Of a stretch of 18,802 nucleotides of DNA, positions 2,029 through 18,802 are shown piece after piece. The translations under genes were made by a program, and so were the position numbers. Numbering within the stretch: the stretch's first letter is position 1; each line of letters starts with the position of its first letter. The DNA comes from a virus. The notes beneath the pieces were generated by a model, which ran no database searches, was not told where the DNA came from, and saw only the letters and a program-made list of their open reading frames with translations. Location of the stretch: IMG/VR virus record IMGVR_UViG_3300045988_025623; one strand, 5' to 3'.

Positions 2029-3156
2029 TCACTTTCTTATGCCTGATTGTTGTAACAAGCCGCCAAGAATCATACTGAACTCCGCCTTGATTTGCGGTGT
2101 CTCGAAACGTAATCGTCCGACGCGATAGGCGTTCAGTATTTTTTGTGTCATATCGTCCGAACGTTTCAACATCATGCAATCATTATCCACCAGTCGATAA
2201 TCAAACGTAAAATCACGAGTGATTTTAGGCTGTTTCTTAGTGATGATATACAATACTTCATCGGTATCACTCAATTGCTGATATACGTTGAAAATACCGT
2301 ATTCGGTGGTTCTTAATGTGAATGCATAACCGGCGTTATTAAAATCACTAATGAGAGTATTAGCGTTATCCCTAAAATCATTATTGATTGCATAATTCGC
2401 ATAATTCTCATCATATTTGCGTAAAAAAGTGCCGAATTTGGATGTGGCCACCTTGGCACTGAAGCCGCCATAATCGGCCAGTTCCACCATGATAAACCCG
2501 TCGCAATAGCGTTGGTATTGCGTGTGATTATCCAACTGCGGTTTCAGGTTGATATTGAATGCCGAAAAATACGGGTTAGCGAGGGTCACTGCGTTGCTGC
2601 ACATGATGACCCTAACCCTATCGTTCCAGCGGTCTACTGTATTGTAGAATTCCTCAAGCGCGGTTACTTCGCCGCCCAAATAGCGCATGTTATCGGGGAA
2701 TATTTCGTCAAAAATAATGGTTCGTACCTTGGGGTAGGCGACTGATTTCACCTGTCCCGCCTGTGATAGGGCGATAAAATACCCCATGATATGCCATGTA
2801 GGGCGCTGTTTGCCGTGCTTGTCGGTGGTGGCGTCCCTATCGTCAATCCAATGGCACTCGGCTTGATTGCCGGACACGCGAAACTCTAGTTCCGGGTATT
2901 GTTCCGCGATATCCGCAAACCACGTGCCTTTATTCTTTTGCTCTTCTGCCGTCCGGCGCAGGTAGATGAATTGCCAGCGTTTTTTAATCCAGTCACCGAT
3001 GACGAGTTTTTTAGCACCATAGGTTTTGCCGAGGCCGCGCGCGCCGATGACGAACATCCAAGGCGCGTGATAGGACAGTACGCGCCCGTAATCGTAGTAA
3101 TCGCCCTCGCTTAACAGCCTTTCCATACTATCCACACTACCGTACGACAACGACAA
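2029..3156 (-). CDS. DNA encapsidation (packaging) ATPase, phi29 gp16-like (start TTG 3156 or ATG 3126)
   Basis: Walker A is VIGARGLGKTY and Walker B is TIIFDEIF. FIYLRRT and CSNAVTLANPYFSAFNI align by eye with phi29 gp16 (FVIGARGIGKSY, FIYVRRY, TIVFDEF, LSNAVSVVNPYF). Confidence 0.9.
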   Translation of the reverse strand: MSLSYGSVDSMERLLSEGDYYDYGRVLSYHAPWMFVIGARGLGKTYGAKKLVIGDWIKKRWQFIYLRRTAEEQKNKGTWFADIAEQYPELEFRVSGNQAECHWIDDRDATTDKHGKQRPTWHIMGYFIALSQAGQVKSVAYPKVRTIIFDEIFPDNMRYLGGEVTALEEFYNTVDRWNDRVRVIMCSNAVTLANPYFSAFNINLKPQLDNHTQYQRYCDGFIMVELADYGGFSAKVATSKFGTFLRKYDENYANYAINNDFRDNANTLISDFNNAGYAFTLRTTEYGIFNVYQQLSDTDEVLYIITKKQPKITRDFTFDYRLVDNDCMMLKRSDDMTQKILNAYRVGRLRFETPQIKAEFSMILGGLLQQSGIRK

Positions 3157-3186: not shown

Positions 3187-4440
3187 TTAAAAGTTCGGCG
3201 GGGCGCTGGTGCCGTCCCATACGTTCAACAGCGAATAGGCGGTATTGTAGCGTGTACCATATGGCCCGAACGGGGATGTGTTGAGGATATTGTTATACAG
3301 TTGGGTAAGCGATGAAGCGTGTGGCACGTTCAACGCGCCCGCGGGGCTTTGGTGATAGGCGCACGTCCATAGTATCTGCATTTTCACGTCATCATACGTC
3401 TGCGGATAACTCTCGTAATCCTCCGCGAACTGGTTCCGCTGGCCTTGACGGGATTCCGTGCGCCGCGCCCACGTCCGGAATGCGGCAACCTCACTGCCGG
3501 TCATCGCCCTGTTGAACGTGCCGCCCGATTCCATAAGCGCGGCGATACTCGGCGCGGCGGCGGCAAACGCCTCATACCCCGCAGCGTCAACCGCCTTCAT
3601 CGCATTCAACACCTGCAAGCGGCGTCCGAATGACCATTGTGCGATACCGATACCCTGATTATTGGATTCCACAGCATCCCAGCGTAATGATGATTCCACG
3701 GTGCCGATGACGTAGAGCGCGTAGGAGCTTTCTCCGTCGCCCACGCTTGGCGTGCCCTGCCCCTGGTCGGCGTCCGGCTGACCTTTGCCGCCACGATACA
3801 CCCACGTCTGGGCGCTCGACTTGTAGAAAATGGCTTGCGATGCCGTCGTGCCCGAACCACTGTGATAAATGAGATTATCACCCTGCAATTGGATCCACGC
3901 GGAGATATCGCCATCCACGCTCACGCCCGGATTATTGCCGCCTGTTGGATTATCCCCGGATTCCGGCGGTTCCGGCAGTGCCGTGGGATGCAAGTAGCCG
4001 AGTAGCTGCGACCCCTTCATGAGCGGTAAGGTTTGATGCACTGCGGGTGTCGGGTTTTGGGTCAATACATCGATGGTATCCCCTTGGATACCACCCCATA
4101 CGATGGCCACGTGTGAACCTGTGTAGATTTGACTGCCGAACGTCCAAAACACTACATCGCCCATGCCGGGCGTGTAATTCGCGTCCTTTTTCTCAAAAAC
4201 GCGCCCCACAGCGGACGTGGTGGGGAACATGGTGTAATTACCCTCCGCATAGCCTGTCGGGGTGATGCAATCGCCTAACGACAGATTGTAATTATCCATG
4301 CAGTATTTTGCCCATAAATCCCAGCACTGGGCACCATAGCTACCGTCCATATCCCAATATTGGTTTTGGGTACGTTCCAACCATGCTCGTACATCTACCA
4401 TGATATTAGTATACCCCGCCCGGCGTACCGGACGGGGCAT
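3187..4440 (-). CDS. Tail-associated peptidoglycan hydrolase: N-terminal CHAP peptidase + C-terminal lytic-transglycosylase-like domain (position of phi29 gp13)
   Basis: CHAP Cys/His motifs are YGAQCWDLW and GSHVAIVWGG. The C-terminal half shows the SLT-like pattern GTVES...GIGIAQW...CAYHQSP. The start is uncertain: the ATG at 4440 has no SD, and an alternative ATG lies at 4401. Confidence 0.8.
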   Translation of the reverse strand: MPRPVRRAGYTNIMVDVRAWLERTQNQYWDMDGSYGAQCWDLWAKYCMDNYNLSLGDCITPTGYAEGNYTMFPTTSAVGRVFEKKDANYTPGMGDVVFWTFGSQIYTGSHVAIVWGGIQGDTIDVLTQNPTPAVHQTLPLMKGSQLLGYLHPTALPEPPESGDNPTGGNNPGVSVDGDISAWIQLQGDNLIYHSGSGTTASQAIFYKSSAQTWVYRGGKGQPDADQGQGTPSVGDGESSYALYVIGTVESSLRWDAVESNNQGIGIAQWSFGRRLQVLNAMKAVDAAGYEAFAAAAPSIAALMESGGTFNRAMTGSEVAAFRTWARRTESRQGQRNQFAEDYESYPQTYDDVKMQILWTCAYHQSPAGALNVPHASSLTQLYNNILNTSPFGPYGTRYNTAYSLLNVWDGTSAPPNF

Positions 4441-4454
4441 GTTTCACGTGAAAC
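4441..4454. repeat. Copy 1 of the 14-bp perfect palindrome GTTTCACGTGAAAC (intergenic)
   Basis: Fills the 16-bp gap between the fibre stop (4457-4459) and the ATG at 4438-4440. Confidence 0.95.
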
Positions 4455-4456
4455 GT

Positions 4457-5902
4457 TTACCACGGGTAGCACACAAAGCAACCATTATTGCCGCCCGCCG
4501 TGCTGCCGTAATAGGAGATACGCGGGGAGCTGGTCGTGCTGTTATCCGTGCCGGTCAGCAGCCAGCCGCTCACGGCACTACCGGAATTGGTCAGGCCCGC
4601 TCCCCATGCACGGAACTGGTCGGGGGCGGAACCGGCGGACGTTCTGGCCCAGCTCGGGAAGTTCACACCGGCCTGCAAGTCACTGTTAGTGGCCACACCC
4701 TCGCCCCAAAGCGAGGCGAACACCATGCCGCCCGAGGCCACGACGTTGCTGCGCACGTGACCATTGGACGATTGGACGGTGGCCGCTTCATAGCGCCCGG
4801 TGTACGTGCCCCGAATGGCGGATGCCATATAGGATGCGATGACCTTGGCACCGTTCGCGTTGGGGTGAATATCTCCGCTGGAAAAATTGGAATCGTTGCC
4901 GATGTTCCACGTCCAAGCCCAATCGACGTTTTCCACACCGTTCGCGGCGGCAGCCTCCGCTACGCCCGCCGCCTTCTGTCGCCCATACATATCCATGCCC
5001 GCGTTATGCCAGAGCATCGGCACGGCGATGATTCGAGCCTTGGGGAATTTGCTGCGCGCATTGGAGAATGTCGCGTCTGCGTATGACTTCATTTGTGAGG
5101 TGGTGGCGATATCGTTACGCCCGCCTCCGATGATGATAATCGCCACGTCATCGTTATCAATGGACGGAGCGCTGTAGGCGTTGTTAATCTGGTCGGTGAA
5201 CGTCTTGCCCGACACATTGAACCCAGCGCCGGTCACGGCGTAGTTTTTCACCTGATAATCGTTGCCGATGATGTTACGGAGCTGCGTCGGCCACTTGGTT
5301 GCGTCCGTGCCGTCCGGGTTGGCGGTGTTGGACGAATTGGCGTAGCTGTCCCCGATGCACAAACAGATAGGCAACTGGTCTTCGGGGGCCGTTTCCAACG
5401 CTTGAATACGCTGGTTCAACTGTTGTGCTGTACCCGAATATCCGCCCTGCTGAGTATAGCGCGCTTCGGCCTGAGAGCGCGTATACACGTCCGCCGTGTT
5501 GGCTTTGCCGTCTACGGTACTGGACAGCGAAGCCACGGTGCTTTGCAATGCCGTCAGCGCCGTGGCTTCTGCCTTGCCATTGATGGTGGACATGAGGTTC
5601 TGCGCGCTCGGTACGGACGTGACGCCGAGCGCATTGAAGTACGATGCCTGCTCGGCAATGTCTGTCGCGTTGGCCTGCGCAAGCTCCGCCGCGTTGTCGG
5701 CGGATTCCTTGGCCGCGTCCGCCGCTGTTTTCGCGTTATTCGCCGCCGCCGTCGCCGTGGTGATGTTGGTCGCGTTGGCGTACATCTGATTATCGATCTT
5801 CGTCATGGCGTCGGTAAAATCACCACGCCACGACGGCCTATCGTTCGGATTGTCACCAAATGTCGGCAGATTGTAATGCCCGGTATGCTGTGTGGCAGAC
5901 AT
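4457..5902 (-). CDS. Tail fibre/appendage protein with coiled-coil shaft and C-terminal SGNH/GDSL hydrolase (esterase) domain
   Basis: SGNH blocks are CIGDSYANSS (GDS), IIGGGRNDI (GxND) and SGDIHPNANG (DxxH). The shaft is Ala/Thr/Asn-rich. The N-terminus MSATQHTGHYNLPTF...DRPSWRGDF...KID is shared with the upstream ORF. I chose the ATG at 5902 because AGGAGA lies 9 nt upstream; the longest ORF extends to 5971. Confidence 0.75.
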   Translation of the reverse strand: MSATQHTGHYNLPTFGDNPNDRPSWRGDFTDAMTKIDNQMYANATNITTATAAANNAKTAADAAKESADNAAELAQANATDIAEQASYFNALGVTSVPSAQNLMSTINGKAEATALTALQSTVASLSSTVDGKANTADVYTRSQAEARYTQQGGYSGTAQQLNQRIQALETAPEDQLPICLCIGDSYANSSNTANPDGTDATKWPTQLRNIIGNDYQVKNYAVTGAGFNVSGKTFTDQINNAYSAPSIDNDDVAIIIIGGGRNDIATTSQMKSYADATFSNARSKFPKARIIAVPMLWHNAGMDMYGRQKAAGVAEAAAANGVENVDWAWTWNIGNDSNFSSGDIHPNANGAKVIASYMASAIRGTYTGRYEAATVQSSNGHVRSNVVASGGMVFASLWGEGVATNSDLQAGVNFPSWARTSAGSAPDQFRAWGAGLTNSGSAVSGWLLTGTDNSTTSSPRISYYGSTAGGNNGCFVCYPW

Positions 5903-5915
5903 TGTTACTTTTCTC

Positions 5916-6332
5916 CTATTCTGTGGTGCCGACACGAACGATGCCGTTCGCATCCTTGTACAGTGAATCAAGCTCGGTCGCCGTCAACCCGAGCGTGCCG
6001 GGCTGCGAGGCGGTTTTATCGACCTTACCCGCAAGCCCCGAAGTGAGGGCGGATGTGGTGGCGAAGCCGCTTGTATCCGGAATATCGGTCTTACGGGCGA
6101 TAGTGGCCGCCACTCCCAGCGGTGAACCGGACGTGCCGTTACCGGTAAGGTCGGCAGTGTGCGACACCGACGTAAGGCCGCCCGCAGCGGCAGACGCGAT
6201 GTCATCCGCGTTCTGCTTGAGCTGTGCATCGATTTTCGCCATGTCGCCGTTATAATCACCGAGCCACGTGGGCCGGTCGGTACCGACGAACTGACTTAGA
6301 TTATAATTTTCGGTATGGTTGGTTGCGGTCAT
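5916..6332 (-). CDS. Tail fibre-like protein, a paralog of the N-terminal anchor domain of the SGNH fibre
   Basis: MTATNHTENYNLSQF..DRPTWLGDY..MAKID parallels the N-terminus of the 4457-5902 product. RBS AGGAAAGGA precedes the start. Confidence 0.55.
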   Translation of the reverse strand: MTATNHTENYNLSQFVGTDRPTWLGDYNGDMAKIDAQLKQNADDIASAAAGGLTSVSHTADLTGNGTSGSPLGVAATIARKTDIPDTSGFATTSALTSGLAGKVDKTASQPGTLGLTATELDSLYKDANGIVRVGTTE

Positions 6333-6337
6333 GATGG

Positions 6338-6973
6338 TTATCCTTTCCTGTCAAAATTATCTGCGGTTGGGTTGCGTTCGACATAGCGCGCATCCGCTTC
6401 AGATTGCGTGATAAACGCCATGTCGACCACAGGGTTTTCGGGCATGGACTTTCCGTAGGGGAATTGCGACCTGCCGGGGAAGTCTCCCGGCACACAATTA
6501 TCCACGGCGGTCGCCTTGAGGTCGTACTCGCGCGCATTGAGCGTAAGCCCGTCGTATTCCTGAGCGGTCAACTGCATATCATCGTAGTCACCCCAGAACA
6601 GCCCATGATTGCGCGCGTTGTCGTACATAGCGCCCAGCACGTCCCCAAGCGGTTGCGTGGTGCCGTATACCGGGGAGGTTGCCACGCCTTGTTGCTCCAT
6701 TTCGTGAATGAGGGCCAGCAACTCCGCGCGCAGCTCAGCCATATTCTTGTTGAGCTGTGTTACGGTATCCATAAGGGCCTTGTCTACGGATGTTGCGAGG
6801 TCGGCGGTGGTGTCCTCCAGCTTGCTGAGGTCGCATTGAATAATGTCAAGATTATGTTTCAGGCATTCGACCAACTGTAAGGTTGTTAACCCGTCGCGAT
6901 AGGTGAACGGCACGGATGTGGGTATCCCGTCGAACAATCGTTGCCGTGGAATTAATGCGTTAATGGCAACCAT
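6338..6973 (-). CDS. Putative tail/collar-associated structural protein (coiled-coil), function unknown
   Basis: 211-aa ORF between the lower collar and fibre genes. GGGAG lies 8 nt upstream of the ATG at 6973. No recognisable catalytic motif. Confidence 0.4.
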   Translation of the reverse strand: MVAINALIPRQRLFDGIPTSVPFTYRDGLTTLQLVECLKHNLDIIQCDLSKLEDTTADLATSVDKALMDTVTQLNKNMAELRAELLALIHEMEQQGVATSPVYGTTQPLGDVLGAMYDNARNHGLFWGDYDDMQLTAQEYDGLTLNAREYDLKATAVDNCVPGDFPGRSQFPYGKSMPENPVVDMAFITQSEADARYVERNPTADNFDRKG

Positions 6974-6978
6974 GATTA

Positions 6979-7770
6979 CTACTCCCATTCTCCATAGTTA
7001 TGGCAGTTGCTGAATATTGTATCATACGAACCCCACACCTGCATGAAGCACGGTTCGAGACTGCGCACAACCTCCATGTCCACGTTGATGATGGCGTTAC
7101 GGTATTCCTGGATCAGACTCATGGCCGACTGGCTGCGCCCGGTCACATGGCTTTTGCCCTTGGAATTGCTGGAATCGTGCTGGTAGTCGGTGGCGCTTTG
7201 GGCGGTGGTGTGGCTGGTCGAGTCCTGCGAACTGGACGCGGTGCCCGAGCTGTCCGCCTGCGATTCGTTCGCATGGCTGGCGTAGCGTGCGAAGTCGCCC
7301 ACGACACCGGTTTGCGGCACGTCACTATCGAAACTTTTCGACGTGGTGGTACTGCTATTATCCGACTTGCTGGTGCTAGAGCTTGTCGAGTCCTGCGTGC
7401 TGGATGCCTTGCCCGAGGATTGCGACTCGCTGCCGCTCTCACTATCCGTGGTCATATCCATGGAGTCCAGCGGGTTATACTCAAGGTCGAGCGTTTTGTA
7501 GCGCTCGTTAAAGTAGGGCATGATTTCCGCCATCGTCATCCCCAAATAGAAGATGAATTGTTGTGCGGTTTCCTGTCCGATTTCCCGAAGTGCGTAATGG
7601 CGTACGATTTTCTCGTTCAATTCGGCGCGATGGCTCTCGTCGTAAATCGGATAATAGTCGGCGCTCAGATGCAGTTTATCGTCCGTATCGTATCCGAACG
7701 CAATGAGATTGCCCAACGTCTCGGTGTACTCTCCGGGCGTGGTCATCGCGTAGGCGCTAAAATCCTGCAT
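6979..7770 (-). CDS. Lower collar protein (phi29 gp11-like)
   Basis: 263 aa, directly downstream of the portal gene (ATG overlaps the portal stop, TAATG). The YYPIYDESHRAELNEKIVRHYALREIGQET..F..L...MAEIMPYFNERY pattern is typical of Picovirinae lower collar proteins. The central region is Ser/Thr-rich. Confidence 0.75.
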   Translation of the reverse strand: MQDFSAYAMTTPGEYTETLGNLIAFGYDTDDKLHLSADYYPIYDESHRAELNEKIVRHYALREIGQETAQQFIFYLGMTMAEIMPYFNERYKTLDLEYNPLDSMDMTTDSESGSESQSSGKASSTQDSTSSSTSKSDNSSTTTSKSFDSDVPQTGVVGDFARYASHANESQADSSGTASSSQDSTSHTTAQSATDYQHDSSNSKGKSHVTGRSQSAMSLIQEYRNAIINVDMEVVRSLEPCFMQVWGSYDTIFSNCHNYGEWE

Positions 7771-8720
7771 TACAATACACCTCCGATACCCGCGTCATAC
7801 GAAGCGGGCATATCAATATCCGTCGTACCGCTGGCGCTTGAATCGAGCGCGTTCGGCACGCCGGAGCTTTGCGCGTCCGCGTACTCTACCCATACGTTCA
7901 ATTGCGGCCACAGTCGGTTGATTTCGGTCGCCGCCGCCTGCCGCGCCTTAAGGAAACTCAACCGGAACACGTCCACCTTCTCGTTGGCTTGCGCCACCTC
8001 GTCGGATATAAGCCGTTCCTTTTTCTCCGTGCCGCTGGACTGGATACCCAAGTACCCCAGCACTTCATTGGTCACCTGCGTTTTTTGCTGAATGAACTTA
8101 TCCAGCAGGTAAGGCGTGGTGTTCGGCCATGGTTGAAACATGCTGCCGGGATCCAGTGAGTCGTATCCGATGATATAATCCTGACCGTCCTGCCGTTGCT
8201 GCAGCATGTTTTGCACGGTAAGTTTGGTGCGAGGGTCGGCGATGATGACGGTCGGCAGCTTCAGGCTCTCCAGATTCACGTCATACGCCTTGTCAATGTC
8301 AGCGAGGCGCCGCGCGTACTGCCATAGGATATCCTTGAAGCTCATGCGCATGCGATTATCCCATATCGGGATGCACTCACGTCCAGCCTTGAGCTGCCGG
8401 TAATGGTAGTTGACGCCCACCGGCTCGAAACGTGTCGGATTATTGTAGACATTCAATCGGCCTTGATACCCGGCTTGCGTCACGAGGAACCGGCCTATAC
8501 GCTTATCCTCGAAGAATAGCGCGCAACCGTACTCACACAAGCACATTTCCAGCCATCGCTCGTCTACAGTGGGCGGCAACCCCCGCCAGCTAAAACGGTT
8601 TAACGCCAACTCCGCCAACAGATGATAATACATCATGTCAAGACTGGCGGCGCGTGCCTTGGCATAGTTGCCGCGCGGGTGCAACGCGCCGCCAACTCGA
8701 TTCCTCTTAGACCTACTCAT
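7770..8720 (-). CDS. Portal / upper collar (connector) protein, phi29 gp10-like
   Basis: 316 aa. LALNRFSWRGLPPTVDERWLE and KKERLISDEV align by eye with phi29 gp10 ([31 protein letters not shown]). The size matches gp10 (309 aa). Confidence 0.9.
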   Translation of the reverse strand: MSRSKRNRVGGALHPRGNYAKARAASLDMMYYHLLAELALNRFSWRGLPPTVDERWLEMCLCEYGCALFFEDKRIGRFLVTQAGYQGRLNVYNNPTRFEPVGVNYHYRQLKAGRECIPIWDNRMRMSFKDILWQYARRLADIDKAYDVNLESLKLPTVIIADPRTKLTVQNMLQQRQDGQDYIIGYDSLDPGSMFQPWPNTTPYLLDKFIQQKTQVTNEVLGYLGIQSSGTEKKERLISDEVAQANEKVDVFRLSFLKARQAAATEINRLWPQLNVWVEYADAQSSGVPNALDSSASGTTDIDMPASYDAGIGGVL

Positions 8721-8732
8721 GTCATTATTATA

Positions 8733-11060
8733 TCACTCGTAGCCGATGCCGGGCAGTGGGTTATTATCCGCCCAATCGGTCATGCCGATGTACTCAGGCT
8801 TATCCCAGACTGTCACGCCGCGCTCAAACATGCCCTTGATGGTTAAACGGTATTCCTCCGGCAGCGTGCCGCGTACATACGCCTCCTGCATCTGCCAGAA
8901 TGTGAATTTCTCCATACATTCCAGCGAGGCGGGCGGGGTGACGAAACGCTGGACAAAATAGCCATAGCGTAGCATGTACTCGCCCGCGGCCCTCAGAGCG
9001 CTGGGGGCGCACACCTTAAATCGTACCAACACCCCCATGATGCCATTCGACAAATTGAACATATCGCCTCCGAGCGCCCCGGATGTGGTTGGCGGGGTCA
9101 ACTGCATTTGCTGCACTTGGGCATTGATTCCCGCAATCGCGTTCTGATAGTCACCTTTGGCGGCATAGGCGGCTAGACCATAATTGGCTTGCGATATAAT
9201 GGCGCTCAACTGATTACTTAATCCGGTTGCCCCACTTGCGTAAGCGTTGGCTTGCGAAGTGGCCGCCGCGTTAGTGGCAGTCTGGTTCGCCGTATTCGCC
9301 GCCGCCGTGGAATTTGAAAACGCCGCCGACGAATTAATACCGTAATTGGCAATATCCATCTGCGCGGAGCCGAGGAATGCGCCGCCGACCGCATTCACCG
9401 CGCCCATCGGACTACGTGAGGCGATGGCATTCACCCCGCCGCCGATAATACTGGCCATACCATTAAGATTATTGCTCTTAATGTTCTGTTGCACCTGTAG
9501 ATTAGCCATCTGGTTGGTTTGATTCTGGCCGATAGCAAGGGACTGGTTCAGCGAGTTCGCGGTAATCGCATTGTTCGCAGTACGGTTCTCATTAGCCCAG
9601 TTGGTTTGCTGGGTAGCATATTCGCGCTGCCACATCGCATTGGAATTGGCGACATCCGCCGACGCCAACGCTTTTTGCCGTGTCCACTGTGCGGATTCCT
9701 GAGCATAGGCGCGCGTATATGCGCTGTTCGCCATAGCCAACGCGCCGCCATTATTAACGACGCTAAAATGGGGTAAATTGGTGATGCCAAAACTCGCGTC
9801 CAACATTTCTCCACCGTCAATAGGCAGCCCATATCCCTTACCGTCGATATTCAGCGGGCTTATTGTGTCCGCGCCCGCCTCATTGTAATCGGGGATATAA
9901 AAGTTGATTCTAGTGCCGCTCGGCGCGAAGGAATACGTTTCCCTGATTGTGAGATTATTCGATTGAATATCCTCAGGCTTATAGGTGATTACAGTACCAT
10001 TCAAGCTACTGCATTCCACCACGCAATACGGGTAGCAATAGAGTTTTTTCAGATTCCTGTAACGCGATGGAATATTAAAATTATCCCTAAAATTGGATAC
10101 ATTTAGAATATCCTCGTAGCGCATTTCAGAATCAATACCGGTAGCGAATTGGTAGATTCTGCCGTAATCCGTTGACACGTTTGAACCATAAATTTTAGTG
10201 ACCTCAGCGCCATATTTATCGATATAGTCCTGCGGAATTTTCGGCACCATATAAATGGCACTAATACCCTGAGTAACCCACGGGTATAACGTGCCCAGAG
10301 CCATGATATTGGCGACATACGCCATACGACTATCACAGTAATAGACCTCGCAGCCGTCCGTAGCCCCCTCGAAAATACTACCCGTGGCCGTTTGCAGGGA
10401 GGGCTTGGACTGGGTTCCCGGAGAGTCGGTAAGGTTGGTGGTGGACACGACGATTATCCCATAGTCAACCCAATTAAGACTGCCGCCATCGAGGTTATAG
10501 TGTTGGGCATTCACAATACTCTTATATGTCTGATTCGTCGTGACCATTTCCGCGCCCGTGTCCAGCCCCTCGGGCAAAGCGAGATACGTGCGCCCGTAAT
10601 CATCCCACTGGTGTTCGTTGGCTACGCCGATATGGCCGCGCGTTACGTAGCAACTGCCGAGCGTAATGTCATGCTGGAAACTCTGCCATACGTCCAGCAT
10701 CAAGACCAACTGGGTACAGTGAGCGTTGACGTATTCGACGTGCTGGATGAAGTAATACCATGCGCGTGGCCCCTCTAGTTCGGGGTAATCATTGTAAGCT
10801 ACCAGATAATTCCAGTTCGACGCCTCATTAAACGGCAATTCGACGCGGGCCGGGGTGTTGAAAATGTGCATGGTGGCCGGGCGGCATTCCACGCCGTTCA
10901 CCTGTTCAAACCATTGTTCCTGTGTTTCACGTGAAACAAACCGGACAACATCGCGGTATGAAGCATCCCACGGTACGCGGCAGAGTTTCAGCGTGGTGTT
11001 TGGCGTCCATTCCGCCCATGAAAAATTGGATTCCACGTAAGGGTTCGCGTCATCAATCAT
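8733..11060 (-). CDS. Tail knob / distal tube protein (phi29 gp9-like) with a long N/Q/A/G-rich internal region
   Basis: NYLVAYNDYPE..RAWYYFIQHVEYVNAHCTQLVLMLDVWQSF..ITLGSCYVTRGH aligns by eye with phi29 gp9 ([44 protein letters not shown]...FIVREH). I chose the ATG at 11060 because GGAGG lies 7 nt upstream; the longest ORF (TTG at 11153) would run through two strong hairpins. Confidence 0.85.
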   Translation of the reverse strand: MIDDANPYVESNFSWAEWTPNTTLKLCRVPWDASYRDVVRFVSRETQEQWFEQVNGVECRPATMHIFNTPARVELPFNEASNWNYLVAYNDYPELEGPRAWYYFIQHVEYVNAHCTQLVLMLDVWQSFQHDITLGSCYVTRGHIGVANEHQWDDYGRTYLALPEGLDTGAEMVTTNQTYKSIVNAQHYNLDGGSLNWVDYGIIVVSTTNLTDSPGTQSKPSLQTATGSIFEGATDGCEVYYCDSRMAYVANIMALGTLYPWVTQGISAIYMVPKIPQDYIDKYGAEVTKIYGSNVSTDYGRIYQFATGIDSEMRYEDILNVSNFRDNFNIPSRYRNLKKLYCYPYCVVECSSLNGTVITYKPEDIQSNNLTIRETYSFAPSGTRINFYIPDYNEAGADTISPLNIDGKGYGLPIDGGEMLDASFGITNLPHFSVVNNGGALAMANSAYTRAYAQESAQWTRQKALASADVANSNAMWQREYATQQTNWANENRTANNAITANSLNQSLAIGQNQTNQMANLQVQQNIKSNNLNGMASIIGGGVNAIASRSPMGAVNAVGGAFLGSAQMDIANYGINSSAAFSNSTAAANTANQTATNAAATSQANAYASGATGLSNQLSAIISQANYGLAAYAAKGDYQNAIAGINAQVQQMQLTPPTTSGALGGDMFNLSNGIMGVLVRFKVCAPSALRAAGEYMLRYGYFVQRFVTPPASLECMEKFTFWQMQEAYVRGTLPEEYRLTIKGMFERGVTVWDKPEYIGMTDWADNNPLPGIGYE
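10924..10937. repeat. Copy 2 of palindrome GTTTCACGTGAAAC (inside the tail knob gene, extends to 16 bp at 10923-10938)
   Basis: Read on the minus strand as TTT GTT TCA CGT GAA ACA, giving F-V-S-R-E-T. Confidence 0.95.
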
Positions 11061-11078
11061 CGTCCAGCCTCCGGTATG

Positions 11079-11123
11079 GTCAAGGCCCGGAGCGCTCACG
11101 TGGATTGCGCTCCGGGCCTTGAC
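11079..11123 (-). promoter_or_regulatory. 17-bp perfect stem-loop between the capsid and tail knob genes (attenuator or RNA-stability element candidate)
   Basis: GTCAAGGCCCGGAGCGC / GCGCTCCGGGCCTTGAC with an 11-nt loop. It ends about 14 nt upstream of the GGAGG RBS of the knob gene. No U-tract follows. Confidence 0.55.
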
Positions 11124-11141
11124 TTGCATCACACCGTGAGA

Positions 11142-11165
11142 GAGGGTAGCCAACCGGCTACCCTC
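11142..11165 (-). promoter_or_regulatory. 10-bp perfect stem-loop just downstream of the capsid gene stop
   Basis: GAGGGTAGCC / GGCTACCCTC with loop AACC, 8 nt after the TGA at 11174-11176. Confidence 0.55.
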
Positions 11166-11173
11166 CCATTATA

Positions 11174-12907
11174 TCACGCGCCGGTTACGGTCACACTCTT
11201 CTTACCAGACACGCCAAACAGCGTGGCGGTAATATCAGAGCTACCCGCCTTAACACCGGTAACCACGCCCGACTCGGACACGGTAGCGTTTGCCGGGGTG
11301 CCGGACGTCCATGCGGCTTGCGCGGTCACGTCGGCGGTGCGCCCGTCAATCATGGTCGCCGTCGCAGTCGCCTGCACCGTATGACCCGTGGTCACGTTCG
11401 AGACGTTAACGGCAATCGACGCGATAATCGACGGATTAAACCCGATGACGCCATCGCCAACCACCGGCACATCCAGCGCGGCGGACACGGTGCCCGGCAC
11501 CTCCGGCGTTGCCGGGTTCGTATACAGAGCGGTAGCCGTGACCGGGATAGTCGTGTTCGGCTCGTCAAGGCCGACCACCAGCACGCCGGTCGGGGAGATG
11601 TAGGTGTAATCGCTCTTGGGCTTGGCGGTATCGCCAATGCGATATTCGACCGCATCCGAGCGGAACGTAGCCGTACCATCGTTGGTGATAGTCGTATCGG
11701 CAACCACCTGCACTGCGCCGCCACGCGCCACATTCTCCGGCGTGGTCGTACCGCCACCGTACATTGCCAACTTAAGCTGGAATGTCGGCGTTTTGGCCTG
11801 CGTACCGGTCGGTGCCACCGTCTTGACAGTGGATCCGGCGCCCGTCCAGAACATGATGGCGGGGGCGAAGCCGCTTACCGAGATAATGTGCTGGACATGC
11901 AGGTAATGGTTGACCGAGTTAATGTTAACCGGGTTGGTCTGCTGCGTCATCTCATTGATGACCGGAATATCAATGAGGAACTTGTCGGTGGTCAGGATGG
12001 CCTGCACACCGTCCATGCCGAATCGGTCTTGCGGGATGACGATAATCCGGTCGATGGTCGGCTCTGCATCCGTGCGCTGGAACACCGTGGCGAGGCCCTG
12101 CACATCCAGAGCGCTCTTCACCTCGGGGGAGCAGAACAACACGAGTTCATCCGGGCGGGCGAACGTCGGCATGTGACGCGCATTATACCGGGTGCTGACA
12201 AACTTCAGCGTATCAGCCCACGCGCGAATCTGCCGCAACATGTCGCGGGCGTCGGTTTCCGTAGATCCCATGTCGTTTAAATCCGCATCCATGTGGACGC
12301 GCCAATACCCGCCGAGCTTCGCGTATTCCACGAATTGATGGCACATGGCTTCAAACAGATCCACTTCAGCCGCGTTATAGCAAGAAGTGAGGATCTGCGA
12401 GGTGAGCGAGGCCAAACCGGTTTCGGACGTAAACGCACGCTGCAATGTCTTGTCATCCGTGGTCGCCGGATACCAGTGGGCAAAGTCCAACCGATGATAG
12501 AGGCTATCCACGTCGATTTTCCACTTGCGGAAGTTGTCCGCGCCCAAATATTCAGCGTTCGGGTCATACACCTGGGCGAGTGGCATACCCACGGCAATTT
12601 CCTGCCACGTGTCACCAAACGCCTGAGACGCCCGCTGGAACACACCAAGCGGATTATTCCAACGCCACGTGTTGACGTAGGTGCCGCCGATACGGTTCAC
12701 CAGCGCCGAGTAAAACTCATTCTTCAGCTGAGTGCTGGACATAAGCGTAGCCATCTGCCTATCCATGTTCATCTGGGTAGCGGACGGCATACGCCGCTGA
12801 TATTCCGGCGACGCCTCGTTGCGAATCATATTCAGGATCTGGGCGTTATTAAAATCGGTGAGCGGCCTCAGCTGCTGCTTGGGCGTCACCACGGGGGTAG
12901 TCGGCAT
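11174..12907 (-). CDS. Major capsid protein (phi29 gp8-like) with C-terminal Ig-like (BIG2-type) domain(s)
   Basis: QILNMIRNEASPEYQRRMPSAT and NEFYSALVNRIG....NNPLGVFQRA align by eye with phi29 gp8 ([34 protein letters not shown]....NNPLKKFKKG). The C-terminus ...VTAQAAWTSGTPANATVSESGVVTGVKAGSSDITATLFGVSGKKSVTVTGA is a typical BIG2 repeat. RBS AAAGGAA precedes the start. Confidence 0.9.
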   Translation of the reverse strand: MPTTPVVTPKQQLRPLTDFNNAQILNMIRNEASPEYQRRMPSATQMNMDRQMATLMSSTQLKNEFYSALVNRIGGTYVNTWRWNNPLGVFQRASQAFGDTWQEIAVGMPLAQVYDPNAEYLGADNFRKWKIDVDSLYHRLDFAHWYPATTDDKTLQRAFTSETGLASLTSQILTSCYNAAEVDLFEAMCHQFVEYAKLGGYWRVHMDADLNDMGSTETDARDMLRQIRAWADTLKFVSTRYNARHMPTFARPDELVLFCSPEVKSALDVQGLATVFQRTDAEPTIDRIIVIPQDRFGMDGVQAILTTDKFLIDIPVINEMTQQTNPVNINSVNHYLHVQHIISVSGFAPAIMFWTGAGSTVKTVAPTGTQAKTPTFQLKLAMYGGGTTTPENVARGGAVQVVADTTITNDGTATFRSDAVEYRIGDTAKPKSDYTYISPTGVLVVGLDEPNTTIPVTATALYTNPATPEVPGTVSAALDVPVVGDGVIGFNPSIIASIAVNVSNVTTGHTVQATATATMIDGRTADVTAQAAWTSGTPANATVSESGVVTGVKAGSSDITATLFGVSGKKSVTVTGA

Positions 12908-12929
12908 GATAGTTGTTCCTTTCTAATGT

Positions 12930-13271
12930 TTAGTCTTCATACAGGTCATCAAACGTGCTATAGGTGCCGTTGTAATCGTCGTCGGTCATTTCCGTGGCGT
13001 CCGGATCCGCGTCGCCGTCCGGGCCATCGTTCAACACGTGGTCGGCGGCGGCGTCGCGCATCGCCTCAATGGTCTTGGACAGTTCCGCCACGGTCGCCTC
13101 CAGAGCGCTGAGACGGTTGGCCATGTCGGCGGTCTTGTCATCGCCCGCGTCCTCCGGTTCGCCATCGTCCTGCGTTTCAGGTTCAGGGTTCGGCGTATTC
13201 TCGTCGGTCGGCCCGGCGTCCGGCTCGGTGTCGGGCGTGGTGTCCGGCTTGTCATCGGTTTCGTTATCCAT
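12930..13271 (-). CDS. Putative scaffolding protein (very acidic, central coiled-coil)
   Basis: 113 aa rich in D/E/P/T with a helical core RLSALEATVAELSKTIEAMRDAA. It sits immediately upstream of the capsid gene, as phi29 gp7 does. AAGGGG lies 5 nt before the ATG at 13271; the longest ORF starts at GTG 13277. Confidence 0.6.
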   Translation of the reverse strand: MDNETDDKPDTTPDTEPDAGPTDENTPNPEPETQDDGEPEDAGDDKTADMANRLSALEATVAELSKTIEAMRDAAADHVLNDGPDGDADPDATEMTDDDYNGTYSTFDDLYED

Positions 13272-13291
13272 ATTCACCCCTTAAGGTTAAT

Positions 13292-13319
13292 GGCATGGCA
13301 GCAATCACGCTGCCATGCC
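13292..13319 (-). promoter_or_regulatory. 11-bp perfect stem-loop in the polymerase-scaffold intergenic region
   Basis: GGCATGGCAGC / GCTGCCATGCC with loop AATCAC, about 15 nt upstream of the scaffold RBS. It is part of a 182-bp ORF-free, structure-rich gap (13278-13459). Confidence 0.6.
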
Positions 13320-13459
13320 GGATTGCTAGGCTGTGCGGGTTCCCTCGCCGTCGCTGGGCGTCGGCAAACGCACGTCTACATCCGACCGAATCGCCTTACC
13401 GATTTGCCTGCCGGTCGGGCCATCGAATCGACTTGGGACGCACACCCCGCTACCGATTA

Positions 13460-14920
13460 TTATAACACGAAACTATGGCCATCATCATTGCGATGGCGTG
13501 ACCCCGGCAGGAATTCGTCGTAGGGGATAGGGGCGGCTCGATGCACGCCACTCAACCGCATTACCGTATCGCCATTCGTTTCCACGCCGCAATATTTACG
13601 ATTGCCGAGAATACGGAGCTTCATATAGGTGTGATCGTTTTTCCAAGCTCCCAGTTTCCGGTCATCCGTCTCGATACCTGCGGGCGCGTCCAGCCCCTCC
13701 AATATCATGCCGTCGGTGTCGGCATAGAGTACGCGGTCGGCGTTCGCGTTCATCGCACGGGACAATGTCTGCCGTCCGTAGGCGTTCACATAGGCGGCGG
13801 TCGGCAGCCACGCCAGACTATTGGATGACTCTGGTTTGTCCACGGTAAAATCCACACCCCCGTCAACGGAGGGCTTGGGATGCAGCATGGGCCGGTAGAG
13901 TGAGGCACCGAACTTCCCCACCAATGAGTTTAATAGTAGTTTCGCCATCTGTTTGCGCTCTCCGGTCGCGGTTTGTTTCACGTGAAACCATGTATCCACA
14001 TAGTTATAGTAGAGGCCGTGTGATTTGCGGAACTTCCAGCCGCCAATATGCTCCCACACATGCACGTCGTAGTTTTCGGTCAGCGTCTCCCAATCCACGT
14101 CGGTGACTGGCATGGTGATGACGCCGAGCGTGCTATCCAAGCGTTCGCCCTCATACCCCCATACGGGTAGGATGTTGGTGAGCGTTGCCGTTTTACCCGG
14201 TTTGAGTCGCGCGTCGAACGCGATAATGTCGATATGCAAAGGATAATCAGGGTCATAATGATATTCCCCGTCGTACCATATGGGGGATCCTACCGGCATG
14301 GGATTGTCGCGCATGATACTCGGATAGAGACTGTTCACATCCCAACTCTTGCAATCCCGGTATTCGCCCGCCCGACTGTATACTATCGCCCCATAGTATG
14401 CGGGGCGCATACGGTGATAATCCTCTCGATCCAGTGGTGGAAAATGTCGTTTAAAGCCTGCGTAATCCCCGCCGATATAATCGGCCATCGCCATTGACGC
14501 TATGGTAGTGCCCGTAAGGTGCAGGGCGGCGCATTCCTGCGCGATGTTCCATGTGGTTTCCAAGTCGGTGGCCCCGCCGAATGTTTCACGTGAAACATGC
14601 AACCCATCATCGCGCGTGATGTTGCGCACGTCCAGAAAGTCCACGGTGATGCCGCCCATGCGCACGCGGAAACTGTAGAAGTGACTGCGAATGTTGAACG
14701 TGCCCCATACGCCATCCTTGCTGGGGTTCGGTTGCAGTGGGAGGCGTTTCAAGAGTTCGGCGGCTATGGGTTTGATGTCCTGCCATCCGTGCGCGCACCA
14801 TACGCGCGTATGATAATCAAGCATGGTGAGGCGGATGACGGCATGGGCGGTCAATGGTTCCATGCCGTCATCCGTCAATAGTGTTGCGCCGTCTGTTGCC
14901 GCCGTTCGACGCTCTTTCAT
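13460..14920 (-). CDS. Family B DNA polymerase, protein-primed type (phi29 gp2-like), compact at 486 aa
   Basis: Motif A is WDVNSLYPSIM, motif B is KQMAKLLLNSLVGKFG, motif C is VLYADTDGMIL and the KxY motif is NRKYCG. DYPLHIDII matches phi29 DYPLHIQHI, and a TPR2-like insert lies between motifs B and C. RBS AAGGATGG precedes the start. Confidence 0.95.
   Translation of the reverse strand: MKERRTAATDGATLLTDDGMEPLTAHAVIRLTMLDYHTRVWCAHGWQDIKPIAAELLKRLPLQPNPSKDGVWGTFNIRSHFYSFRVRMGGITVDFLDVRNITRDDGLHVSRETFGGATDLETTWNIAQECAALHLTGTTIASMAMADYIGGDYAGFKRHFPPLDREDYHRMRPAYYGAIVYSRAGEYRDCKSWDVNSLYPSIMRDNPMPVGSPIWYDGEYHYDPDYPLHIDIIAFDARLKPGKTATLTNILPVWGYEGERLDSTLGVITMPVTDVDWETLTENYDVHVWEHIGGWKFRKSHGLYYNYVDTWFHVKQTATGERKQMAKLLLNSLVGKFGASLYRPMLHPKPSVDGGVDFTVDKPESSNSLAWLPTAAYVNAYGRQTLSRAMNANADRVLYADTDGMILEGLDAPAGIETDDRKLGAWKNDHTYMKLRILGNRKYCGVETNGDTVMRLSGVHRAAPIPYDEFLPGSRHRNDDGHSFVL
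13975..13988. repeat. Copy 3 of palindrome GTTTCACGTGAAAC (inside the DNA polymerase gene, just upstream of motif B)
   Basis: Read on the minus strand as TGG TTT CAC GTG AAA CAA, giving W-F-H-V-K-Q. Confidence 0.95.
14583..14596. repeat. Copy 4 of palindrome GTTTCACGTGAAAC (inside the DNA polymerase N-terminal domain, extends to 18 bp at 14581-14598)
   Basis: Read on the minus strand as CAT GTT TCA CGT GAA ACA TTC, giving H-V-S-R-E-T-F. Confidence 0.95.
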
Positions 14921-14932
14921 TTGTCCATCCTT

Positions 14933-15877
14933 TTAGTGTCGTGCTGCGCTGGTCATCCATTCATCGAGTCGTGTCTCCACGTCGCCCGCGTCCGCTTTAG
15001 TCTCCCATTTATGTGTCTTGTCATTATACCATGTCGCCTCACGTACTACGGTGCTAAAATTCGTGTTGTTCATTAGCCATCGTTTTTGGCGGTTCGATAG
15101 AGACGCGAATTTTTGAGCCACGCTAGAGTCGAACGCTTCAATCTGTTGTTCGACCCTATCAAAATCCGAAACGCCCTCACTCTGAGGAATCTTCTTGTTT
15201 CCTGCGTGTAATGGTGCGCGTCCTATAAGCCCGGCGTATTCCAATATTTCCCGCTCAAGTCGTTTACGGTTGCCCTCTCGTATCATCGCGCGCGCATGGC
15301 TTATGCCACGTTCCGTCCCGAACACGTTGGCACGGTTGCGCGTGAGTTCGTCACGCGCCGATCCACCAACCGTATGGGTGCCCAGCACGTCGAACGGTGA
15401 TTCGCCCGCGCGTTCCATTTCGCGTACTTCGCCCACGGTATATTGGGCCATGCTCAGCGCCTCGAATTGTTGGGCGCGTTTGATTTTTTGCCGCGCCTCG
15501 ACTCGGCGGCGCTGCTGCTGCCGTAGCGTCTTGCGGCGCTTTGTTGGGGCGGCGGCGATTTCCGCGTCGGATATCAGCGGACGCGCCGCCATCTCACGGT
15601 CAAATTTCGTAATATGAACATCGGGCACGACCTGATACGGTTCATTATCCCGCGCACGTAAGGCTTGCTGTTGTTCCCCAAACTCCTGCCCGATACGTCG
15701 GGCGACCTGCTCAAGCTGTTGGGCACTGAGTTTGCCTAGGAATGTTTCGGTGATTTGCTTGGGGAGGCGTCCAGTGCTGTAGTCCCTTACCGCTCGTTCC
15801 TGGCGTACCTGCGCAGATCTGATAGCGGCGTTACGTTTCAGATTGTTGGCGCGTCGATTGGTTTTGCGTTTTGCCAC
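14933..15877 (-). CDS. Putative terminal protein (replication primer), assigned by position and composition only
   Basis: 314-aa, highly basic, helical protein (MAKRKTNRRANNLKRN...). It is encoded directly upstream of the protein-primed polymerase, as phi29 gene 3 precedes gene 2. The start is GTG with a strong AAGGAGG RBS. I recognised no sequence motif. Confidence 0.5.
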   Translation of the reverse strand: MAKRKTNRRANNLKRNAAIRSAQVRQERAVRDYSTGRLPKQITETFLGKLSAQQLEQVARRIGQEFGEQQQALRARDNEPYQVVPDVHITKFDREMAARPLISDAEIAAAPTKRRKTLRQQQRRRVEARQKIKRAQQFEALSMAQYTVGEVREMERAGESPFDVLGTHTVGGSARDELTRNRANVFGTERGISHARAMIREGNRKRLEREILEYAGLIGRAPLHAGNKKIPQSEGVSDFDRVEQQIEAFDSSVAQKFASLSNRQKRWLMNNTNFSTVVREATWYNDKTHKWETKADAGDVETRLDEWMTSAARH

Positions 15878-16465: not shown

Positions 16466-16783
16466 TTATTTTTCCTCGGAGATGATTTCATCCTCGACCA
16501 CGTTGCCGGTCACCGGCCCCGGATAGTCGATAACGGTATCATCTCCAAATTCACAATTAGCCCAGTAGATTGCCTCGTCCATGCGCGTTGCCTGCGCATG
16601 ATACTCGGCGGACATGGGAAGCATGTCCTTGTTGATCTTGCGGGCTTTCTTCATTGCCATGTCGGCCGTGCGGCACGCGCCGTCTACGACCACCTCGGCG
16701 TCAACGAGTTCCCCGTTTTCGCCGCGCGTGACGCCGCGCACGATACTGTAGTGCTTTGCTCGCTTGATGTATGCCATAATCAT
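16466..16783 (-). CDS. Hypothetical early protein (105 aa)
   Basis: Intact ORF in the early operon. Its ATG overlaps the upstream stop (ATGA), which suggests translational coupling. Confidence 0.6.
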   Translation of the reverse strand: MIMAYIKRAKHYSIVRGVTRGENGELVDAEVVVDGACRTADMAMKKARKINKDMLPMSAEYHAQATRMDEAIYWANCEFGDDTVIDYPGPVTGNVVEDEIISEEK

Positions 16784-17307
16784 ACCGCCTTACTTGACTG
16801 TTGCTGCTGTTGTGACATTCTTGCCACGTCTTCATCAGTATACCGCATGTCGGATAGATCGTCAAAACAACGACACGCAATCTTGATGATGGTTTGGGCG
16901 AATTCGTTGCCGTCCCAGATTTTGCACATCTCATAGCATGTCGCACCCTTGACGTGGCAGACCGCACACCATGCCACCATTGCCGGGGCGTAGATGACGC
17001 CGCCCAACATTTCGATATTCTGGGTTCGCGCCAACGCGCCGATACGGGACGTGCGTGGGGATAATGATAGGCAAACGTTTGCCGCATGTTCGATACCGTC
17101 CGCAAACGCCATCTGCGCGCCTTGAGGTTTGTAAAAATCCTTGAGTAGCGCTACAGTACGGCAGAACGTTTCCCAATCACCCTGGCCTTTATTGTATTCA
17201 CGCAAGTGCAGATGTCGCCGCCTGCCACGGATGACTCGGCGCACGCGGTCATCATCCAGCACGCCATCATCAAACCAATTCGTACGGCTACTATCCTCAT
17301 TCCTCAT
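16780..17307 (-). CDS. Hypothetical early protein (175 aa) with a Cys-rich C-terminal half
   Basis: Intact ORF containing WCAVCHVKGATCYEMC...ACRC cysteine clusters, possibly metal-binding. No family recognised. Confidence 0.6.
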   Translation of the reverse strand: MRNEDSSRTNWFDDGVLDDDRVRRVIRGRRRHLHLREYNKGQGDWETFCRTVALLKDFYKPQGAQMAFADGIEHAANVCLSLSPRTSRIGALARTQNIEMLGGVIYAPAMVAWCAVCHVKGATCYEMCKIWDGNEFAQTIIKIACRCFDDLSDMRYTDEDVARMSQQQQQSSKAV

Positions 17308-17566
17308 AGCGCGCCCAAGCTCCCTTATATTTCTGACATGCGTAAATGCCGATTTTTCTATACATCACATCGGCCTTAAAACCGGAGGTATCGTTAATAA
17401 TCTTCGCAATGTCTTTCAGTTTTTGCAAATCATTCTGCGCAGTATATTCCTCTGAATAAATCGGGAACATGGAATATTCCATAGCAAGCGGTATAATACG
17501 CAAACGGTACACCACTTGCTCACCCTCATATTCGACTTTACTAAAATTCCGGTTGTTCGTTTCCAT
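17297..17566 (-). CDS. Hypothetical early protein (89 aa, start METNN)
   Basis: GAGGGG lies 7 nt upstream of the ATG at 17566. The longer ORF to 17701 would overlap the neighbouring gene and has an Arg/Pro-rich, non-protein-like N-terminus. Confidence 0.5.
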   Translation of the reverse strand: METNNRNFSKVEYEGEQVVYRLRIIPLAMEYSMFPIYSEEYTAQNDLQKLKDIAKIINDTSGFKADVMYRKIGIYACQKYKGAWARYEE

Positions 17567-17774
17567 GATTATACCCCTCACGGTATCCACGTTCATAATC
17601 ATCCTTAAACATCCTATGAATATCATAGGGGAGCGTTTCGCGTTCGGGCTTACCCTCAGCGGCGTCCAGCGCGCCACGCTCGTAACCTTGCGTGGCGGCA
17701 ATCATTGCGCCCTGCTCAGTCCACTGGCCGAACAATTGTTGGCAAAGTTCCGTGATACTGCTAGGCTCTGTCAA
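17541..17774 (-). CDS. Hypothetical small early protein with a GY-repeat motif (paralog of 17761-18003)
   Basis: 77 aa with a TTG start preceded by AAGGGG 5 nt upstream. It contains TQGYERG and DYERGYREGYNHG. Confidence 0.5.
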   Translation of the reverse strand: MTEPSSITELCQQLFGQWTEQGAMIAATQGYERGALDAAEGKPERETLPYDIHRMFKDDYERGYREGYNHGNEQPEF

Positions 17775-18003
17775 TCTCGCCCCTTACTATCGCATCCGCG
17801 ATATGCAAGTCAGTCGGACGCTGCTCACGCTCCGTAACGCCCTGCGCATAACCCTCGCGGAAACAATCGCAATAACCTTGGGCGCACGCCGCATCCTCCA
17901 ATGGGCGGATAGCATGAGCGGGGAGCATCAAACCGGCACGGTAGCCCTGCTCGTAATACGCGGTACATAATGCCGCATCCCATGTCATCGGCGTAAAACT
18001 CAC
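17761..18003 (-). CDS. Hypothetical small early protein with a GY-repeat motif (paralog of 17541-17774)
   Basis: Contains YYEQGYRAG and AQGYCDCFREGYAQG. I chose the GTG at 18003 because GGAGG lies 7 nt upstream and it forms a GTGA overlap with the upstream stop. The longest ORF starts at GTG 18048. Confidence 0.5.
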   Translation of the reverse strand: MSFTPMTWDAALCTAYYEQGYRAGLMLPAHAIRPLEDAACAQGYCDCFREGYAQGVTEREQRPTDLHIADAIVRGEIDRA

Positions 18004-18750: not shown

Positions 18751-18802
18751 CTGTCTCTTATACACATCTCCGAGCCCACGAGACAGGCAGAAAGCTCGTA
18801 TG
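18751..18802. other. Illumina Nextera/Tn5 adapter read-through (artefact), exact reverse complement of 1-52
   Basis: CTGTCTCTTATACACATCTCCGAGCCCACGAGAC + AGGCAGAA + AGCTCGTATG at the 3' end of the window. Confidence 0.97.

Follow-up and report, generated by a model that had tools for sequence, protein, structure and literature searches.

Conserved palindromes in a phi29-like phage with a presumed Bifidobacterium host are very likely chromosomal-type parS sites

The 18,802-nt viral stretch of IMG/VR record IMGVR_UViG_3300045988_025623 (hereafter the window, meaning the whole stretch; all coordinates are on its + strand) is, judged by its gene content, a complete or nearly complete phi29-like podophage with a protein-primed DNA polymerase, and it carries four exact copies of the 14-bp palindrome GTTTCACGTGAAAC, at 4441-4454, 10924-10937, 13975-13988 and 14583-14596. 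By its sequence, and by the selection acting on it, this palindrome is very likely the core of the near-universal chromosomal parS site, the loading site of ParB/Spo0J. We consider it probable that the four palindromes are host-type parS sites kept under selection at the DNA level, which would recruit the ParB of the host, partition or positioning of the phage genome during a delayed infection being the favoured role. That a phi29-like phage may carry host-type parS is already known; what is new here is a clade whose inferred host does not sporulate.

The initial annotation of the window had reported the four copies as beyond chance, and a scan of the whole stretch found them exactly where it had placed them, with no further site of this kind at up to two mismatches. 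None of 200 dinucleotide-preserving shuffles of the window reached four copies (mean 0.06). The copies are real rather than an assembly artefact, given that they recur at the same positions in 80 independently assembled relatives (see below). The longer palindromes (16 bp at 10923-10938, 18 bp at 14581-14598) and the short flanks that pairs of copies share are likewise all present as described. All four 14-mers have a T at position -1 on the + strand; when extended to 16 bp, two of them become the perfect palindrome TGTTTCACGTGAAACA and the other two deviate from it in the last base alone (Table 1).

The identification as canonical chromosomal parS follows from the literature: papers containing the exact 14-mer in a full-text search deal almost all with ParB and parS, and a review table gives the parS consensus as TGTTNCACGTGAAACA for Bacillus subtilis and Corynebacterium glutamicum and as GTTTCACGTGAAAC for Mycobacterium smegmatis. 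Against the 16-bp consensus TGTTNCACGTGAAACA, two sites match at 16 of 16 positions and two at 15 of 16, the single mismatch being in each case the outermost base. Since only 4^7 different 14-bp palindromes are possible, simple arithmetic puts a coincidental match with parS at about 1 in 16,000. The initial annotation had listed among its candidates an operator with 7-bp half-sites for a dimeric phage or host regulator: the half-sites and the dimeric host protein were essentially right, a phage regulator is not needed, and the parS identity had gone unrecognised.

Three of the four sites are embedded in genes, in the reading frames originally described, that is R-F-V-S-R-E-T in the tail knob and, in the DNA polymerase, H-V-S-R-E-T-F (residues 108-114, site 14583) and W-F-H-V-K-Q (residues 311-316, site 13975). 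A DNA-level signal superimposed on coding constraint had been suspected, and the ways proposed to probe it included codon-preserving shuffles, a comparison of orthologous positions where synonymous alternatives exist, and a count of the motif in related phages. The data strongly suggest that such a signal exists because: (i), synonymous codon shuffles that kept the proteins gave on average 0.044 coding copies and never more than two, so that the observed three were reached in 0 of 20,000 and this shuffle, like that of the plain sequence, failed to reproduce the count. (ii), the V-S-R-E-T sites are written in rare codons, GTT accounting for 11% of Val, TCA for 9% of Ser and CGT for 22% of Arg. 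(iii), the sites are retained in relatives: IMG/VR holds more than 100 uncultured relatives whose polymerases are 88-93% identical and which are about 85% identical at the DNA level, and in the 80 loci compared, with retention counted at up to two mismatches in 16, at least three sites are kept in 67 and at least one in 77, at the same positions as in the window, the figure for shuffled loci being 0. And (iv), synonymous diversity among these relatives is lowered at the sites to under half of expectation: when each motif codon was set against codons that specify its amino acid at other places in five genes, the three coding sites being taken together, the 15 motif codons summed to 2.25 against 4.95 expected (p ~9e-5, an approximate value since the test is made within alignments of related sequences). 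Matching by codon class across the three coding sites was necessary because window rankings are by themselves only moderately convincing: in the polymerase alignment the two sites rank in the top 1.4% (parS-4) and 8% of conserved 14-nt windows, and the 5-codon synonymous windows at the polymerase sites in the top 15% and 10%.

The distribution of the remaining diversity is informative. In relatives, third positions of the core show a synonymous diversity of 0-0.13, the N position one of 0.40 and the outermost base one of 0.42-0.47; for parS-2 the core stands at 0-0.12 vs a background of 0.2-0.44. What diversity is left thus sits at position 5 of the 16-mer, the N of the consensus (TTT/TTC), and at the outermost base or beyond (ACA/ACG, CAA/CAG), and the commonest parS-3 variant among relatives, GTTCCACGTGAAAC, is changed precisely at the N of TGTTNCACGTGAAACA. 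The constraint seen in relatives matches the pattern recognised by ParB, with a fixed core and with position 5 and the outer bases free. In three relatives (L055 3950, L057 1416, L071 3955) the equivalent of the 14583 site carries a symmetric double variant, GTCTCACGTGAGAC, again a perfect palindrome and with both changes synonymous; it may be a sign of decay, or of a host whose parS preference has changed.

The proteins themselves appear to have yielded to the signal. The polymerase segment W-F-H-V-K-Q does align with W-T-Y-I-K-T of phi29, about 10 residues before motif B, as had been noted by eye, and in other relatives without parS its equivalents are W-S-E-L-K-Q and W-G-D-L-K-Q; the equivalent of V-S-R-E-T-Q in relatives without parS is D-R-K-K-Q, and the polymerase segment that carries parS-4 is missing altogether from the polymerases of phages BD811P2 and BP1. 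Given that the residues at the sites differ or are absent where parS is lacking, we suggest that the DNA signal dictated the protein sequence in segments that tolerate it.

The fourth site, parS-1, is different in being intergenic. The initial annotation had placed it in the gap between the fibre stop at 4457 and an ATG at 4440 taken as the start of the tail-hydrolase gene; the intergenic position holds, since in an alignment of the junction this ATG reads ATA in most relatives, and the proposed start does not, the CHAP hydrolase gene probably beginning at 4401. parS-1 is the least conserved of the four, being intact in about one third of the relatives and precisely deleted in a few, and across relatives it adjoins several different fibre-gene ends. 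Directly 3' of it on the minus strand lies a GC-rich hairpin (4414-4437, CCCCGTCCGG-TACG-CCGGGCGGGG) followed by TATACT. The hairpin is conserved, with compensatory stem changes in relatives, and together with TATACT (4401-4440) might act as terminator, promoter or RNA element.

The precedent for such sites is phi29, the type phage of the group, which carries five parS sites that the host Spo0J uses to trap the phage genome in the forespore. As a positive control, our scan of phi29 (NC_011048) recovered five sites, at 10446, 11797, 15904, 17244 and 18761, four of them with at most one mismatch, three of which are coding and one (17244) intergenic. The coding sites read N-V-S-R-G-T, N-V-S-R-G-T and D-V-P-R-E-T, in the same frame as V-S-R-E-T of the window, and lie on both strands. 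The scan found none in Streptococcus phage Cp-1 or Bacillus phage GA-1. The perfect 16-mer is also present in Clostridium innocuum phage CI130P2 (10355), in Hungatella phage CH17P1 (8388) and in Enterococcus faecium phage CUB-FM, whose host does not sporulate and whose two sites, at 4741 and 1211, are one perfect and one near-perfect. At least 120 viral stretches in IMG/VR contain the perfect 16-mer, vs 12 for a composition-matched control palindrome (each present as a single copy); phi29-like podophages, mostly low-GC and several with 3-6 sites, make up 23 of the 120 stretches listed and 0 of the 12 controls, and their sites often read V-S-R-E-T or F-H-V-K. Going by these sequences, capture of host parS is recurrent in phi29-like phages, and the window clade is the actinobacterial example found. 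A further group of viral contigs that are not recognisably phi29-like (L090, L104, L105, L107, L145 and L157, GC 0.38-0.54) carries 3-6 parS within a few kb; candidate readings are centromeres of phage-plasmids, origin regions that were captured, or additional hijackers.

The host was approached through cultured-phage relatives and by aligning the endolysin in one scan of bacterial genomes. Among cultured phages, podophages of Bifidobacterium come nearest; their genomes are collinear, with identities of 35-37% for the polymerase and 37-42% for the capsid protein. The endolysin shares 57% identity with its counterpart in an unrelated Bifidobacterium asteroides siphophage, and its sole full-length relative in the bacterial genome scan is in Bifidobacterium phasiani (65%). 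An endolysin search of a large protein set returned, among the matches listed, only the phage's own clade and no host names. We infer from these similarities that the host is a Bifidobacterium. Bifidobacterium does not sporulate. Scans of the 20 main open reading frames (all but the holin) against Pfam and PHROG revealed no ParB, ParA, helix-turn-helix regulator, nuclease, methylase or recombinase, and, as the phage has no recognisable ParB, the binding partner of its sites should be the chromosomal ParB of the host. Such a partner may well be present: a survey of more than 100 actinobacterial genomes reports ParABS in all of them, and a study of 12 gut strains, a B. longum among them, found in all ParABS and 1-10 parS per genome with the same consensus as here.

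A mechanism may be suggested from what is established for ParB. Dimers of ParB first nucleate at parS; once CTP is bound they form closed clamps that slide along the DNA, and their accumulation requires DNA with blocked ends; in actinobacteria, ParB also interacts with SMC, DivIVA and FtsZ. After injection of the phage DNA, host chromosomal ParB dimers would nucleate at the four sites, become sliding clamps with CTP bound and spread along the 18.8 kb of the genome. A terminal protein attached covalently to each 5' end would turn this genome into a "closed" substrate from which the clamps should not escape and, with the ends blocked in this way and four loading sites within 10 kb, the whole molecule should become coated. 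Coated phage DNA could then mimic the origin region of the chromosome, being moved by ParA, loaded with SMC and, in actinobacteria, acted on by polar DivIVA and tethered near the pole. The purpose would be faithful inheritance or positioning when lytic growth is delayed, in a carrier or pseudolysogenic state, and partition of such a non-lytic carrier genome is our preferred guess as to the biological purpose. For a host that does not sporulate, this would correspond to the Spo0J-dependent entrapment of phi29 in spores.

Several observations weigh against this proposal. It is not obvious why a strictly lytic phage should need partition, and no carrier state has been documented for this clade. 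No parS was found in the cultured Bifidobacterium podophages BD811P2, BP1 and BadAztec1, nor in cultured phi29-like phages of Arthrobacter, Curtobacterium and Actinomyces, which argues that the sites are dispensable for phages of this type. Even within the clade individual sites have decayed in some relatives and 3 of the 80 loci have none left at up to two mismatches. The phage polymerase has no match in species-representative bacterial genomes. The approximate nature of the p-value for synonymous diversity belongs on the same side.

The most serious competitor shares the binding partner. The sites could bind host ParB so as to harm or reprogramme the host, either by titration that disturbs segregation, SMC loading or division, or by bringing ParB-associated factors to the phage replication factory. 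The sequence evidence is the same as for partition and does not discriminate between the two; moreover, with four sites on each of hundreds of replicating genomes the phage would sequester ParB, a role for which several sites per small genome are suited, the actinobacterial contacts of ParB with SMC, DivIVA and FtsZ offer targets, and a lytic phage gains little from partition in a normal burst. We nevertheless regard titration as unlikely to be the main function: the sole studied precedent, phi29, uses its sites for segregation of the phage genome, and close relatives of the window often manage with 1-3 sites.

That the palindrome is instead an operator, bound by a dimeric phage regulator or by a host transcription factor other than ParB and resembling parS by coincidence, seems to us very improbable. 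The dyad is perfect and has 7-bp half-sites, as operators typically do, no family could be recognised for several of the small early proteins (16466-18266), and parS-1 is intergenic, beside the conserved hairpin and the TATACT box. Nevertheless, three of the four sites lie deep within genes and share no promoter geometry, in keeping with the initial annotation, which had found none common to all copies; the sites match parS at 15-16 of 16 positions and vary in relatives along the parS consensus, its degenerate position included; and the 16-mer recurs in many unrelated phi29-like lineages with other early genes as well as in phi29, where the partner is Spo0J.

We give still less credence to the palindrome being a target or by-product of restriction-modification, nicking or recombination, or a functionless ancestral inheritance. 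Its core, CACGTG, is a type II recognition sequence. This hexamer is not avoided in the window (13 occurrences vs about 5 expected by our own estimate from base composition), and the short flanks shared in pairs among the four copies could point to copying. Phages tend, however, to lose restriction sites and not to keep 14-16-bp extensions of them, conservation spans the whole 14-mer beyond the hexamer, and the 20 main open reading frames include no nuclease, methylase or recombinase gene, so that nothing points to the nicking, modification or recombination sites among the original candidates; neutral inheritance, for its part, fails to explain the low synonymous diversity, the rare codons and the repeated independent appearance of the sites. 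Least credible of all is the remaining original candidate, a signal in RNA in which minus-strand transcripts would form a hairpin GUUUC-ACGU-GAAAC for processing, stability or protein binding: although transcription of the genome is almost entirely unidirectional, with the four copies all on the transcribed strand, and those at 4441 and 14583 fold somewhat better than shuffles (z -1.5 and -2.0), the hairpin is weak and not consistently predicted, being outside the minimum-energy fold at 13975 and reaching only z -0.6 at 10924, the commonest variant (T to C at motif position 4) creates a C-A mismatch that is uncompensated in 17-21 relatives, and the palindrome is identical on both strands, with the phi29 coding sites on both.

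The window thus turns a puzzling signal into a concrete candidate for an interaction between a phage and the chromosome-segregation system of its host. To our knowledge, phi29 is the only studied case of a lytic phage that uses host parS, and spore entrapment is the rationale given for it. Because the inferred host of the window cannot sporulate, and because an Enterococcus phage also has a perfect site, the strategy must have a more general use, for which persistence without lysogeny, positioning of phage DNA and sabotage of host segregation are candidates. Public metagenomes from human-associated samples contain the clade very often (over 100 IMG/VR contigs, and more than 1,700 endolysin homologues at E<=1e-10, the 120 listed being all 88-94% identical), and the finding may bear on how virulent phages persist in the gut. 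It is tempting to speculate, and we do so tentatively, that phi29-like phages with protein-capped linear genomes repeatedly capture host parS, including that of non-sporulating hosts, that ParABS then carries a "strictly lytic" genome as a partitioned episome with the terminal proteins as end-blocks, and that parS count marks a hidden carrier lifestyle in abundant gut phages; this wider scheme is possible rather than probable. A text search of a 2024 review of phi29-like phages, which covers about 2,100 such genomes, finds no mention of parS, Spo0J or spores. The three coding sites can be recoded synonymously and so provide a clean genetic handle. For annotation, V-S-R-E-T peptides in unrelated phage proteins would be read as the footprint of an embedded DNA signal and not as a protein motif.

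The genome that carries the sites is organised as in Table 1, with all genes but one on the minus strand. The tail-knob gene starts at the ATG at 11060, which follows GGAGG, the program-made open reading frame start at 11153 being wrong.

Table 1. Candidate parS sites and main genes of the 18,802-nt window
Feature	Position	Strand	Sequence or family	Location or remark
parS-1	4440..4455	n/a	TGTTTCACGTGAAACG, 15/16 to consensus	Intergenic, between fibre stop (4457) and GC hairpin 5' of CHAP tail-hydrolase gene
parS-2	10923..10938	n/a	TGTTTCACGTGAAACA, 16/16	Inside tail-knob gene (minus), codons V-S-R-E-T
parS-3	13974..13989	n/a	TGTTTCACGTGAAACC, 15/16	Inside DNA polymerase gene (minus), W-F-H-V-K-Q, ~10 residues before motif B
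parS-4	14582..14597	n/a	TGTTTCACGTGAAACA, 16/16	18-bp palindrome with flanks; N-terminal region of DNA polymerase gene, H-V-S-R-E-T-F
GH25-LysM endolysin	618-1670			Listed together with the holin
gp16-type packaging ATPase	2029-3156			
CHAP tail hydrolase	3187-4440 (start probably 4401)	minus		
GDSL fibre	4457-5971	minus		
Lower collar and connector				Between fibre and knob in the gene list
gp9-like tail knob	8733-11060	minus	phrog_2248, PF20934, PF16838	Carries parS-2
phi29-type capsid protein	11174-12907	minus		
Family-B DNA polymerase (protein-primed)	13460-14920	minus	PF03175 (1.3e-34), phrog_1907	Carries parS-3 and parS-4
Likely terminal protein	14933-15877			
phi29-type single-stranded DNA-binding protein and small early open reading frames				Listed after the terminal protein

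No Rfam family was found in the window, hence no annotated packaging RNA or riboswitch, and comparison with a collection of cultured phages for near-identical DNA returned only adapter matches at the window ends. Positions 1-52 and 18751-18802 are indeed Nextera library adapter, composed of the i7 primer tail CATACGAG.T, the index TTCTGCCT and then GTCTCGTGGGCTCGGAGATGTGTATAAGAGACAG, and these ends match the ends of many unrelated phage records. The inverted terminal repeats described in the initial annotation are present, except that their first and last 52 nt are not phage sequence: the 328-nt perfect repeat includes this artefact, so that the real one extends at most over 53-328 and 18475-18750. 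Inside it (80-215, mirrored at 18531-18723) motifs of the TTCTGTGTT(T) type are iterated, and a TTCGGCGTGTCGT(G/T)TT box recurs as well; these may be binding sites for replication-initiation proteins. Between the capsid stop and the knob start there is a perfect 17-bp inverted repeat (11079-11095 / 11107-11123) with CACGTG in its loop and no T-run after it, and an extended -10-like TGATATAAT is found at about 11165-11175 on the minus strand. The polymerases of the window and of the Bifidobacterium podophages are 445-486 aa long vs 572 for phi29, and in a five-sequence alignment they lack the exonuclease motifs of phi29, ExoI D-x-E reading D-G-A and ExoII and ExoIII falling in gaps; the proofreading domain may be degenerate.

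Among known systems, phi29 and its close relatives come nearest. The window and phi29 are both small podophages with a terminal protein, a protein-primed polymerase, a gp16 ATPase, a connector and a gp9 knob, and both carry several host-consensus parS copies, largely within coding sequence and without a phage ParB. The sites themselves do not appear to descend from a common set: in the window they lie in the polymerase, the knob and the fibre/hydrolase junction, in phi29 in the connector, gp12, gp15, the end of gp16 and gp17, which argues for independent gain, and the closest cultured relatives of the window, the Bifidobacterium podophages, are without them, which points to a lineage-specific gain. 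The host of phi29 sporulates, whereas that of the window is presumably a non-sporulating actinobacterium, for which entrapment in spores cannot serve as the purpose. No enrichment of Spo0A boxes is seen in the window, TGTCGAA occurring three times (6377, 9046, 16353) vs about 2.3 expected by our own estimate, with no copy in an obvious promoter region or near the start of the early region. The window further differs from phi29 in having all genes but one on a single strand.

Partition cassettes of the P1, N15 and phage-plasmid type are also virus-borne centromere-like sites for a ParB-type protein. Those phages are temperate and bring their own ParA and ParB with their own specific parS, whereas the window, with no par genes found among 20 open reading frames, presents the host chromosomal site, and its sites are dispersed over 10 kb instead of forming a parS array within a ParABS cassette. 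The Noc-binding sites (NBS) of Firmicutes are likewise 16-bp palindromes bound by a CTP switch protein of the ParB family. Their consensus, ATTTCCCGGGAAAT, differs from parS at the specificity positions, and the phage sites fit parS and not NBS; we know of no Noc in actinobacteria. The chromosomal parS of Actinobacteria and Firmicutes (Corynebacterium, Mycobacterium, Streptomyces, Bacillus) finally has the same sequence (GTTTCACGTGAAAC / TGTTNCACGTGAAACA), the same dyad symmetry and several copies, and it too is tolerated within genes, B. subtilis having a chromosomal parS internal to spo0J. Chromosomal parS clusters around oriC, whereas the sites of the window stand on a phage genome, four in 18.8 kb, far denser than the chromosomal average.

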